In this document: one piece after another, positions 8,017 through 22,126 of the stretch
Layout of the letters: each line of letters opens with the position of its first letter
How positions within the stretch are numbered: position 1 is the first letter of the stretch
Notes under the pieces: generated by a model
What the model was told of the DNA's origin: nothing
Databases searched by the model: none
What the model saw: only the letters and a program-made list of their open reading frames with translations
Program-made: the position numbers and the translations under genes
Assembly (NCBI RefSeq): GCF_040096355.1
Contig: NZ_JBBMEX010000002.1
Span: 272,483 to 296,482 of the forward strand
DNA length: 24,000 nt
From: Maccoyibacter intestinihominis
GTDB taxonomy: Bacteria; Bacillota; Clostridia; Lachnospirales; Lachnospiraceae
Reading direction: 5' to 3'

Positions 8017-8625
8017 ATGAACGTATATGAAGAAATAGATCAGGAAACAATGATGTTGCTTTTAGATTCCTTGTGTAAACGGACAGTGGAGGGAAAACAG
8101 ATATGGGAAAATATGGAGTATAATCCTATTTCCTTTTTACAGAAAGATATTTATGAAAAAGAAGGTACCTGTATATCACAAATGTTTGAAGCAACGACAG
8201 TGTTCAATAACATTGAATATGAATTAGAGCTTTCAGAGTCAATCGAACTTCCGTCTGGCAAGGGAGATATTTTTGGAACAATTTCTTATGAAACAGAAGA
8301 CGGAAAAGAGAATACGTATGATTTCTCTTTGTCTTTTGATGTAGAGAAATATGATGATGCGAATGCGGAAGAATTGCAGGGGATTTTTGGGAGCTCAATC
8401 ATTGTACAGTTTACAGATGCAATAGTGGGAATATTTGAAAATTCAGATGCGGTAGCTGAGGGATTTGCTTATGCAAGATACTATCATCAAACAGGAATTG
8501 ATTCGGAATGGGAAACCAATCCTCTTGTGAAACTTGGTGAGAAACTGATGCAAGAGCACGCAATGCTGGATTTTCATAAAATAGTATTGGATACAGCTTC
8601 TAGGGAGCGTTTATTGAAACGGTAA
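8017..8625 (+). CDS. Hypothetical protein, strongly acidic
   Basis: RBS AAAGGAGG precedes ATG 8017. By my count there are about 41 D/E against 16 K/R in 202 aa. I recognise no motif. Confidence 0.6.
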   Translation: MNVYEEIDQETMMLLLDSLCKRTVEGKQIWENMEYNPISFLQKDIYEKEGTCISQMFEATTVFNNIEYELELSESIELPSGKGDIFGTISYETEDGKENTYDFSLSFDVEKYDDANAEELQGIFGSSIIVQFTDAIVGIFENSDAVAEGFAYARYYHQTGIDSEWETNPLVKLGEKLMQEHAMLDFHKIVLDTASRERLLKR

Positions 8626-8673
8626 GTAACGGGTTATAATAAGATACAACCAATCAATTTTTTGTGGAAACTA

Positions 8674-8702
8674 TTGATATTTCTTAGGGTATCGCATATA
8701 AT
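8674..8702 (+). promoter_or_regulatory. Near-consensus sigma-A promoter
   Basis: TTGATA (8674-8679), a 17-nt spacer, then TATAAT (8697-8702). It sits exactly at the AT-rich to GC-richer transition. Confidence 0.65.
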
Positions 8703-8708
8703 ATAATT

Positions 8709-8961
8709 AAGCCAAAAGGTTTCGTGTAGCGGCACGTAAAAGCTGTACTGTGCCCGGGCAGGGTAATTACTGGGACTATTTGATACTCGGAAGGGTATTA
8801 CGCCCACACCAGGGAGATACGGTGAGTCCGCGCCGGGGACTCAATGATACCGGCGACATTTTAGACATTCGGAAGGATGTCGCGGCTGACAGCCAGCATA
8901 AAACCGCTTTTTAAGATTATGGGCACTGGATAACAAAAAAGTTGTCCAGTGCTGTTTTTTT
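8709..8961 (+). ncRNA. Unclassified structured leader / ncRNA (~250 nt) ending in an intrinsic terminator
   Basis: The stretch has no ORF and is locally GC-rich. A candidate closing helix pairs 8714-8722 (AAAAGGTTT) with 8901-8911 (AAACCGCTTTT, one bulge). Local hairpins are 8723-8736, 8783-8798, 8824-8842 (GAGTCC/GGACTC) and 8864-8881 (GACATTC-GGAA-GGATGTC), followed by the terminator. Confidence 0.55.
8923..8961 (+). terminator. Rho-independent terminator
   Basis: GCACTGGATAAC (8923-8934), an A6 loop, GTTGTCCAGTGC (8941-8952, one G-U pair), then TGTTTTTTT. Confidence 0.8.
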
Positions 8962-8990
8962 ATACTATAGTGATGATTGGGAAAAGATAG

Positions 8991-9623
8991 ATGGGAAAAC
9001 AACAGGATAGAGAGAAAATTGTACAGGAGATTAAAGTAGCTGCTGATCTGTATAGGAAGCATTTAGTAGGTAAAAGATTTCTATATGTATTTGAAGGCAG
9101 ATATATTGAGGTGCTTTATAAAGCTGCCAATTTTAGGCACTTGACAGGTGTGGCCACGAACCTTTCAGCAAAAAAGTTTTATAGTTATGCAGCAAAAAAA
9201 ATGCTTCAGGCTTCGCAGATATTTTTTACACCGCAGCACCCTTTTTCATTGTGTAAGCGTAAGATTAAGCATATCGGACAGATTGCAATGCTGGCTGGCT
9301 CAGAAGGATTTATGCTGGAAGAGATTGTCACAGACACGAGAACTTATAAGTTTGGCACAACAGATCTTAATTTTACTCTATGCTTAAATAAAGAGTATGA
9401 TGATAAGGGGCAGCAAAAGGGCGATTGCTTTGTAGTAGAATCGCTGCGAGATGAAGATTGCTTTTCTAAAAGTAGAACAGCATATACAGTAACTCATATT
9501 TTTTCAGCGCCGAATGATGCGAAAAAATATACAAATTTACTGTTTTTAGATGAAAATGCAACGGTAGACGGTCTTCCAGATGAAATTAAAAACATGCTGG
9601 ATCAAACTTTACTACATAAATAA
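8991..9623 (+). CDS. Hypothetical protein (210 aa)
   Basis: A long ORF with normal composition and a weak RBS (GGGAAAAG). It lies downstream of the leader and terminator. I cannot place it in a family with confidence. Confidence 0.6.
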   Translation: MGKQQDREKIVQEIKVAADLYRKHLVGKRFLYVFEGRYIEVLYKAANFRHLTGVATNLSAKKFYSYAAKKMLQASQIFFTPQHPFSLCKRKIKHIGQIAMLAGSEGFMLEEIVTDTRTYKFGTTDLNFTLCLNKEYDDKGQQKGDCFVVESLRDEDCFSKSRTAYTVTHIFSAPNDAKKYTNLLFLDENATVDGLPDEIKNMLDQTLLHK

Positions 9624-9718
9624 AAATGGAGAGTACAGGTCTTGGCGTATAGAAAATACTGCAGGATCTTCTTACGAAAGAATTTTTTAAGATATGAGAG
9701 AAAAGAGGTGCTTTCTAT

Positions 9719-9898
9719 ATGGCTACATCAAGTATCCTTACAGAGCTTGTGATTGAAGACCCCAAAAAGGCAGAAGCATTTATTAATGCACTGGAACTGT
9801 CCAGTCAAGATCCAGTATGCAGCCCGTCTGCCCCGTTCATTCCCATATTAGATAGTGTGGAAGAGATACGGAGGTTCCTGGAAAGAAAAAACAAGTAA
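9719..9898 (+). CDS. Small hypothetical protein (59 aa, below the ORF-track cutoff)
   Basis: RBS AAAGAGG at 9702-9708 precedes ATG 9719. The product is MATSSILTELVIEDPKKAEAFINALELSSQDPVCSPSAPFIPILDSVEEIRRFLERKNK. A terminator follows. Confidence 0.45.
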   Translation: MATSSILTELVIEDPKKAEAFINALELSSQDPVCSPSAPFIPILDSVEEIRRFLERKNK

Positions 9899-21495: not shown

Positions 21496-21556
21496 GAATG
21501 GTTTCTTTTAATTGCAAAAATCGACAATTTTTTTTGGATATAACTTGACAGGATAG

Positions 21557-22126
21557 GGAAAATCCACCTTATTGAATATTATAGGAGGAATTGAAACAGC
21601 CGATGAGGGCAGCATCATCATTGATGGCGAGACCGTAGAGAACATGAATGACAAGCAGCTTTCCCTGTACAGAAGAAAGCACTTAGGATATGTGTTCCAG
21701 TCCTACAATCTGATTCCGAATCTGACGGTAAAAGAAAATATTGAAACGGGTGCGTACTTAAGCAATGATCCACTGCCGTTGGATGATATGTTAAAAACAC
21801 TCGGACTCTGGGAGCATAAGGACAAAATCCCAAACCAGCTTTCCGGAGGACAGCAGCAGAGAACAGCCATCGGAAGGGCGATCATCAAAAATCCGGACAT
21901 ACTGCTCTGTGATGAGCCAACCGGAGCTTTGGACTATAAGACCTCGAAAGAGATTTTAAAACTCATTGAGACCGTAAATCAGAAATTTGGAAATACCGTC
22001 ATCTTAGTCACACATAATGATGCGATCCGCCATATGGCAGATCAGGTCATAAAGCTGCATGACGGACAGATCCGCCACAATGATAAGAATGAGCAGAAGA
22101 TTCCTGCCGTAGATTTAGACTGGTAA
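21557..22126 (+). pseudogene. 5'-truncated MacB/FtsE-type ABC ATPase
   Basis: In frame, the sequence reads TAG (21554-21556) then GKSTLLNIIGG, so it starts in the middle of Walker A (GxxGxGKST). The Q-loop FQSYNL, signature LSGGQQQR, Walker B ILLCDEPTGALD and H-loop VTHN are intact. There is no RBS or plausible start. Confidence 0.75.

Follow-up and report, generated by a model that had tools for sequence, protein, structure and literature searches.

A multi-pseudoknot RNA directly upstream of a PBECR4-domain gene in Maccoyibacter intestinihominis: a candidate type III-like RNA antitoxin

Analysis of a 24,000-nucleotide (nt) stretch of the Maccoyibacter intestinihominis genome (Lachnospiraceae; contig NZ_JBBMEX010000002.1, positions 272,483 to 296,482 of the forward strand; referred to here as the window) revealed a structured RNA of about 200 nt, predicted to start at 8709 and conserved up to about 8911, which lies directly upstream of a gene for a PBECR4-domain protein (8991–9623). 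The comparative evidence modestly favours a reading in which the two form a type III-like pair, the RNA being the antitoxin and the PBECR4 protein the toxin. This reading follows from the layout of the module, the pseudoknots and diverged repeats of the RNA and the predicted ribonuclease (RNase) activity of the protein, and further from the absence of any protein partner, the asymmetry in how the two components decay and the pairing of RNA and protein clade by clade. The initial annotation, made from the letters of the window only, had offered either a riboswitch-like leader or an RNA antitoxin; of these two, the type III-like alternative fitted the comparative evidence better and the riboswitch was the weaker. 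No paper was found that describes an RNA–PBECR4 toxin-antitoxin family. All of the features given below with window coordinates lie on the forward strand.

A sigma-70-type promoter was found between 8674 and 8702, consisting of a −35 element (TTGATA, 8674–8679), a 17-nt spacer and a −10 element (TATAAT, 8697–8702). It matched the consensus at 11 of 12 positions, which bore out the near-consensus promoter of the initial annotation, and transcription is predicted to start from it near 8709, where the fold begins. Homology to other loci began just 5′ of the −35 element and most of the RNA homologues carried an equally placed −35/−10 pair; among 37 representative RNA copies, the scan found such a pair at the same position with at least 10 of 12 matches in 20. 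The GC content of the stretch between 8700 and 8899 was 51.5% compared with 33–40% in the flanks, in line with its earlier description as locally GC-rich, and the single-sequence fold had an energy of −90 kcal/mol (z = −4.1), which beat all 200 of 200 shuffles. The stretch had also been called free of open reading frames (ORFs). Small ORFs do overlap it, but none was kept as a frame across the homologues, which carried 1–2-nt indel differences. An intrinsic terminator followed between 8922 and 8961, made up of a 13-bp stem (8922–8953) with a 6-nt loop and a U-run reaching 8961, and its end was separated by 30 nt from the PBECR4 start codon (ATG) at 8991, as had been proposed. Under a strict rule, a hairpin and U-run were present 3′ of the RNA in 39 of the 50 loci that carried a full PBECR4 gene; in the other 11 a possible hairpin was listed, but its U-run was weak or interrupted. 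No conserved second promoter was found between the terminator and the ATG.

A scan against Rfam 15 gave no match at the gathering score anywhere in the window and nothing relevant at E values up to 10 between 8550 and 9100, which agreed with the earlier remark that the RNA matched no known riboswitch class. BLAST of the RNA found no match in 72,556 plasmid records, 50,697 phage records or the genomes of 60 relatives. A motif scan with 20 specified bases from the 3′ part of the RNA retrieved 4 viral and 118 metagenome stretches, mostly from the human gut, and in all 129 copies of the RNA were collected with 70–100% identity (91 or 80 of them unique, depending on the span compared).

A structure model was drawn by eye from an alignment of 37 sequences less than 96% alike and was then counted on 44 sequences, a set that includes relatives retrieved without the RNA motif. 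In this model of 63 pairs, 96.1% of the cells were paired and 39 pairs showed compensatory changes; its covariation score was 0.339, as against 0.07–0.095 for slid controls, and none of 500 shuffles reached that value. Besides three H-type pseudoknots, the model contains two hairpins capped by tetraloops and two helices formed over long range, with support from covariation, and on this comparative evidence the RNA of about 200 nt is genuinely structured.

The fold begins with hairpins P1 (8709–8713/8718–8722) and P2 (8723–8726/8733–8736), which together occupy 8709–8736 and were assessed by covariation counts; the P2 loop (8728–8732) is the 5′ strand of a closing pseudoknot, LR1. These are followed by a conserved UAAAA (8737–8741) and by GCUGU (8742–8746), the 5′ strand of a second long-range helix, LR2; this segment (8737–8746) was nearly invariant in the 44 sequences. 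Repeat unit A (8747–8802) comprises pseudoknot PK1 (S1 8748–8751/8758–8761; S2 8753–8757/8770–8774), a GGAA-tetraloop hairpin, P3 (8782–8788/8793–8799), and a trinucleotide. A central pseudoknot, PK2 (8803–8824; S1 8803–8805/8812–8814; S2 8807–8810/8821–8824), with the conserved loop GGGAGAUA, leads to repeat unit B (8825–8884), which comprises PK3 (S1 8825–8829/8837–8841; S2 8831–8836/8850–8855), a GGAA-tetraloop hairpin, P4 (8864–8870/8875–8881), and a trinucleotide. The 3′ part (8885–8911) holds hairpin P5′ (8885–8888/8894–8897), an A-run (8900–8903) and a tail (8904–8908). LR2 pairs 8742–8746 with the P5′ loop (8889–8893), and LR1 pairs the P2 loop with the 3′ tail and so closes the domain. 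The conserved RNA ended at about 8911–8913, where homology to the copies in other contexts stopped.

Compensatory changes were seen at 3 of the 4 S2 pairs of PK2, whose S1 also changed from C-G to U-A in two sequences, at all 6 S2 pairs of PK3, at 5 of the 7 pairs of P4 and at 4 of the 5 pairs of LR1, where AGCGG/CCGCU of the window is replaced by AAGAG/CUCUU in loci L160, L183, L185 and L187. LR2 showed a double change at one pair, which was CG in 40 sequences and UA in 4. A local hairpin that would compete with LR2 (8884–8887/8891–8894) was rejected, as it is broken by the G-to-A change of the L160 type, for which LR2 compensates with a change from C to U. The closing helix of the initial annotation, between 8714–8722 and 8901–8911, was also rejected; though present in the single-sequence minimum free energy fold, it had only 57% of its cells paired in the 37 homologues, no better than slid controls, and covariation ruled against it. 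Bases 8709–8722 form the local hairpin P1 instead. Two stem-loops inside the domain (8782–8799 and 8864–8881), and not one as had been noted, are capped by GGAA. Most of the copies were retrieved by the 3′-end motif, so that this stretch is invariant by selection, and the case for the 3′-end helices comes from the few relatives found by other routes.

Alignment of unit A with unit B gave a score of 44 compared with 14.7 ± 5.6 for shuffled sequences, and none of 2000 shuffles scored as high. The similarity held across the family, with a median z of 5.1 in the 44 sequences, and the units, which are diverged and 56–61 nt long, are on this alignment evidence an old duplication. The short motif GATAC, which had been singled out because it recurs at 8782, 8816 and 8846, had no conserved counterpart as a repeat; the repeated item is the diverged unit. 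The loops of P3 and P4 (8789–8792 and 8871–8874) tended to change together, with GGAA, GGCA, GAAA, GUAA, GCAA or UGUA found in both hairpins of a copy, and CACC/UACC and UAACU in both as further loop pairs. Strict identity of the two tetraloops was rejected, the agreement being a tendency seen in 45 of 80 unique copies. Since the loops changed jointly while the stems differed, the pattern points to a partner that recognises both loops and not to gene conversion.

The gene downstream of the terminator (8991–9623) encodes a candidate toxin of 210 amino acids that matched the Pfam PBECR4 profile, PF18813, with E = 2.2e-22 and 80.8 bits (cut-off 27). PBECR4 has been predicted to be a metal-independent RNase with a catalytic histidine (PMC5512222), and in most PBECR families a histidine located on the N-terminal helix was proposed by Iyer et al. 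as the active site (PMC5512222). H50 and G53 of the window protein, within the motif F-[RK]-H-L-T-G, were invariant in 49 sequences from three clades. The invariance of H50 matches the active-site histidine of Iyer et al. and marks it as a conserved predicted catalytic residue. By its Pfam family the protein is predicted to be a BECR-fold endoribonuclease. An AlphaFold (AF2) model had a predicted local distance difference test score (pLDDT) of 87. No solved structure matched the protein (Foldseek best E = 0.33; profile search against PDB sequences, none below E = 0.86), which argues that PBECR4 is not ToxN-like, and Pfam gave PBECR4 only; among the structure matches listed there was no entry of the ToxN type that would indicate homology to ToxN, CptN or TenpN. 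Neither PADLOC nor NCBIfam holds a model for PBECR4, and PADLOC gave no match.

The RNA and the PBECR4 gene were closely linked. Among the 110 RNA copies with at least 750 nt of downstream sequence, 50 were followed by a full PBECR4 gene, 31 by a partial or broken one and 29 by none. In the 50 loci with a full gene, PBECR4 started at +61 to +101 from the RNA and protein identity went down to about 50%; the layout itself was kept down to about 32%, the RNAs of the L160 type preceding PBECR4 proteins that are 32–34% identical to that of the window. The RNA also accompanied every close PBECR4 relative in genome contigs when retrieval was based on the protein and was thus independent of the RNA sequence. 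An exact-sequence look-up of three proteins with 63–66% identity (P0089, P0048 and P0077) returned 12 contigs, all 12 of which had the RNA upstream (nhmmer E = 1e-51 to 1e-56). They represent three unrelated settings, in which the module adjoins a serine recombinase, is flanked by TetR and DctM genes, or separates an AraC gene from a phage integrase gene. No intact toxin gene of the window clade was encountered that lacked the RNA, which was present in all intact relatives retrieved for which upstream DNA was available; L012, the sole 5′-truncated gene retrieved from genome contigs, gave no RNA match. RNA and protein diverged together. The promoter, RNA, terminator and PBECR4 gene formed a discrete unit of 1 kb, as homology to the window was confined to 8621–9634 in Blautia strains (L005–L009), stopped at 9634 in L004 too, and ran from about 8671 to about 9624 in more distant loci, and RNA and PBECR4 recurred as this unit in unrelated contexts.

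PBECR4 genes outside the window clade also had structured RNAs upstream. Matches to PF18813 were present in 43 of 401 Lachnospirales genomes, and the best 30 PBECR4 loci comprised 1 with the window-type RNA, 10 with an uncatalogued two-repeat RNA, 11 with the drum RNA of Rfam and 8 that were unassigned. The model of the two-repeat RNA (loci L141, L142, L147, L148, L153, L157, L159, L161 and L165) was 93.4% paired, with compensatory changes at 20 of 34 pairs, and a terminator follows it. This RNA shares with that of the window the order of promoter, first hairpin, UAAAA, two units, terminator and PBECR4, hairpin loops of 5 nt that pair with the 5′ ends of the units, a 3′ tail whose pairing with the first hairpin's loop makes a closing pseudoknot, and a short motif of the type GGYUGRCAG..CA.C..AAAAMC. 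Its units, however, are shorter (about 52–68 nt) and more alike, it has neither GNRA hairpins nor a central pseudoknot, and the hidden Markov model of the window family does not detect it. In the two-repeat RNA (L147:2107–2330, minus strand, and its homologues in the other loci) the terminator stem is variable, whereas the terminator loop keeps a conserved YUGCGG. Additionally, a DUF3800-XI RNA (RF02975, 64.6 bits) lies at L147:2378–2425 (minus strand), just 5′ of the two-repeat RNA and its PBECR4 gene.

Drum (RF02958) was found directly upstream of PBECR4 in 11 loci with 63–100 bits. A second module with the order promoter, RNA, terminator and PBECR4 is present in the same genome as the window, on contig C5 (about 151300–152022); it consists of a drum RNA (L152:1327–1437, 91.9 bits) and a PBECR4 gene (L152:1492–2061) whose product is about 8% identical to the window protein. 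Drum and the window RNA share this layout and an A-run near the 3′ end, but no sequence or model similarity (cmscan gave no drum match at E up to 10); drum has a different and shorter fold (112-nt model) and its PBECR4 partners form a distant clade, 8–14% identical to the window protein. Drum was described in 2017 by Weinberg et al. as associated with a nearby protein, improbable as a riboswitch and of unknown function (PMC5737381), and a literature search found no paper linking drum or PBECR4 to toxin-antitoxin biology. In a maximum-likelihood tree of 43 PBECR4 proteins, those with the window-type RNA formed one clade (93/87) and those with drum another (97/93), while the two-repeat RNA marked the sister clade of that of the window (100/99). 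Each RNA class maps to one PBECR4 clade.

This correspondence bears on whether the RNA belongs to PBECR4 at all. That it is an independent trans-acting small RNA of the mobile element, concerned with transfer, excision or host genes and merely lying beside PBECR4, would suit its own promoter and terminator, the copies that exist without PBECR4 and, in several loci, the proximity of the module to genes for recombinases or integrases where elements end. Three PBECR4 clades, each with its own RNA class in the same place, are nevertheless more than chance adjacency can explain, and the joint movement of RNA and PBECR4 as a 1-kb unit into unrelated contexts points the same way, so that we regard an independent small RNA as very improbable.

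No conserved protein partner of PBECR4 was found. Homology stopped 11 nt past the PBECR4 stop codon, in 22 of 53 loci no ORF started within 200 nt 3′ of the gene, and no conserved small ORF followed it, which leaves no candidate protein immunity partner. The 59-amino-acid ORF at 9719–9898 of the window was considered as such a partner and rejected, as the conserved module does not extend to it and it goes together with an acetyltransferase gene. Loss of the toxin with retention of the RNA, as in the copies listed above with a broken PBECR4 or none, is the decay expected of a toxin-antitoxin pair and supports the antitoxin reading. The same asymmetry, in which orphan RNAs are common and toxin-only loci are not seen, is that of an antidote and speaks against an RNA that PBECR4 needs for its activity. 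Such an obligate cofactor, guide or sensor, forming a ribonucleoprotein for PBECR4 activity or targeting with the co-varying loops as specificity elements, would account for the strict co-divergence of RNA and protein, for the joint changes of the two hairpin loops and for a fold more elaborate than simple inhibition seems to require. The loops are, however, mostly generic GNRA tetraloops with no evident target, and with the terminator so placed RNA would be made in excess of protein, as it is in antitoxin systems; a cofactor role is, on balance, improbable.

A cis-acting leader, whether riboswitch or attenuator, in which the domain senses a small molecule, a protein or an infection cue and sets read-through into PBECR4, is the alternative to which we give most room, though we still consider it unlikely. 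The position of the RNA as a 5′ leader, its aptamer-like closed fold with many invariant unpaired bases and the terminator before the gene all agree with it, as does a 6-nt complementarity between 8751–8756 and the 5′ arm of the terminator (8920–8925), which was noticed by eye, is GC-rich and could be due to chance. Several unrelated riboswitch classes can precede one gene family, so the different RNA classes upstream of PBECR4 fit a leader as well. On the other side, the terminator lies outside the conserved block and its sequence varies freely between subgroups, whereas the 3′ strand of the RNA is locked in LR1; no conserved antiterminator and no conserved overlap of the terminator with the folded domain were found. 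Nor is the RNA consistently followed by the gene that a leader would regulate: 29 of 110 copies lack PBECR4 downstream and 31 have only a partial or broken gene, and some copies keep the terminator with no same-strand ORF of at least 50 amino acids among those listed for about 950 nt. PBECR4 has no metabolic link to any ligand, and drum, the RNA that accompanies another PBECR4 clade, was itself thought an improbable riboswitch (Weinberg et al., PMC5737381).

The type III-like reading has precedents in ToxIN, CptIN and TenpIN (Blower 2012, PMC3401426; Rao 2015, PMC4627078). As in those systems, the window module has a same-strand RNA gene with its own promoter directly upstream of the toxin gene, an intervening Rho-independent terminator, a pseudoknotted RNA and a predicted endoribonuclease as toxin; it likewise occurs on mobile elements of Firmicutes, including Lachnospiraceae, and its RNA and protein co-vary. 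The endoribonuclease activity of PBECR4 is a prediction at the level of the family, and on the type III-like reading the RNA would inhibit the enzyme by direct binding and the enzyme would process the RNA precursor. The module differs in its RNA, which folds as a single large closed domain, about 200 nt long, and contains two diverged units in place of the 2–5 near-identical short tandem repeats of classical type III antitoxins. A precedent for an RNA antitoxin outside the ToxN families is RCd22, encoded on the phi027 prophage of Clostridioides difficile. This structured RNA precedes abiF and holds two copies of a motif; it was shown to repress the toxin gene and to neutralise AbiF in cis and in trans by direct binding (bioRxiv 10.1101/2025.04.15.648962). 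There too the RNA lies directly upstream of a non-ToxN toxin gene on a mobile element of a gut Firmicute, but the abiF motif RNA was not matched in the window and AbiF is an Abi_2/HEPN-like protein.

We propose that the module would act as a type III-like toxin-antitoxin or abortive infection system near the ends of integrated mobile elements. Most transcripts would stop at the terminator, giving an excess of RNA, and a minority would read through and allow PBECR4 to be made. The RNA would then bind and silence the RNase; its two pseudo-symmetric units might accommodate two protomers, and processing might take place at the UAAAA sites on either side of the core (8737–8741 and 8899–8903). Once transcription ceases or the RNA is degraded, as under phage attack or after loss of the element, free PBECR4 might cleave cellular or phage RNA. 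The broader proposal, that PBECR4 RNases and their upstream RNAs make up a fourth superfamily of type III-like defence or addiction modules without the ToxN fold, each clade having co-evolved with its own knotted RNA, is evenly balanced in our estimation.

Several points weigh against an RNA antitoxin. The toxin family is unrelated to those of the established systems, PBECR4 being neither ToxN, CptN nor TenpN, and the RNase fold is taken from the Pfam assignment alone because no solved structure matched. Tandem Repeats Finder detected no tandem repeat in the RNA, and the resemblance between units A and B is distant, in contrast to the repeats of classical type III antitoxins; the two diverged units soften the objection, raised in the initial annotation, that type III loci use tandem RNA repeats. 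In the L170 and L178 subgroups the 3′ tail is different and LR1 is reduced to about 3 pairs. Eight of the best 30 PBECR4 loci from genomes had no assignable RNA, three of these lying at contig ends. The transcript ends at 8709 and 8961 are predicted from sequence, and the RNA-seq contigs were uninformative, the locus appearing in the RNA-seq runs only as long assembler contigs (9–48 kb) or as three short pieces of low depth. Finally, metagenome sampling is redundant, so that the copy counts do not represent independent events, and some of the broken toxins may be assembly errors.

Several copies showed rearrangements of the module. PBECR4 was broken at codon 23 in many gut metagenome contigs (L017, L042, L049–L051, L063, L067, L099, L100, L107, L126 and L127) and at codon 26 in L016 and L106. 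In the L017 type the RNA starts at the equivalent of 8767, which leaves a fragment of about 290 bp (8767–9060); either the same rearrangement has recurred or the site is a hot spot for insertions. The RNA and terminator also occur without PBECR4 on an IMG/VR viral contig of 67 kb (L018:9321–9544), immediately after serine recombinase and M78/Fic genes. A decayed second copy of the RNA (L002:1501–1625; contig C2, about 270819–270940) lies about 1.6 kb before the start of the window and consists of the 3′-most 65 nt of the RNA, with 85% identity to 8872–8936, fused to an apparent diverged PBECR4 start, with the terminator deleted.

The 59-amino-acid gene downstream of PBECR4 precedes an intact acetyltransferase gene in related loci. 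In the window only the decayed start of this acetyltransferase gene (phrog_1758 type) remains, between about 9905 and 10200, whereas both are preserved in full in locus L029 and some nine loci like it, where they resemble a type II toxin-antitoxin pair, of which the toxin half is dead in the window. In about 10 loci the RNA runs directly into the 59-amino-acid gene and the acetyltransferase gene, with exactly the terminator and PBECR4 absent. As the window shares the 59-amino-acid gene and the decayed acetyltransferase start, these loci are a clean deletion derivative of a window-like arrangement, and the idea that the RNA is a modular leader for varied cargo was rejected for the main case. 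Further 3′ of PBECR4 lie genes for an XRE regulator, a receiverless Spo0A C-terminal domain, a short ORF with a resolvase domain, three large serine recombinases and AbiH; judged by this gene content, the region is a mobile element. In several loci the module was found close to a recombinase or integrase gene where an element ends. The flank between 7400 and 8660 had no match in two congeners. Similar motifs (CAATTTTTT.TGGA...TTGAYA) were present at 8650–8684 and 21515–21550, at the two compositional borders of a recombinase block of about 12.9 kb, and the left one takes in the −35 element of the promoter of the RNA. At 21572 lies an ABC ATPase gene that matched only positions 29–136 of the ABC_tran profile, so its start is absent.

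The RNA represents a class without an Rfam entry, though common in human-gut Lachnospiraceae. If the antitoxin reading is correct, the type III class would come to include a BECR-fold RNase kept in check by a large RNA with several pseudoknots, which would pose a new problem of RNA–protein recognition for structural work, and sequence-specific RNases with RNA inhibitors may be useful as tools. Drum, an orphan since 2017, would gain its first functional context. Under the broader proposal, a single toxin family would prove to be tamed by structurally different RNAs, namely the window type, the two-repeat RNA and drum, and orphan RNA copies would act as anti-addiction or counter-defence elements. 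The antitoxin reading would also account for the recurrence of the module at the ends of gut mobile elements and prophages.

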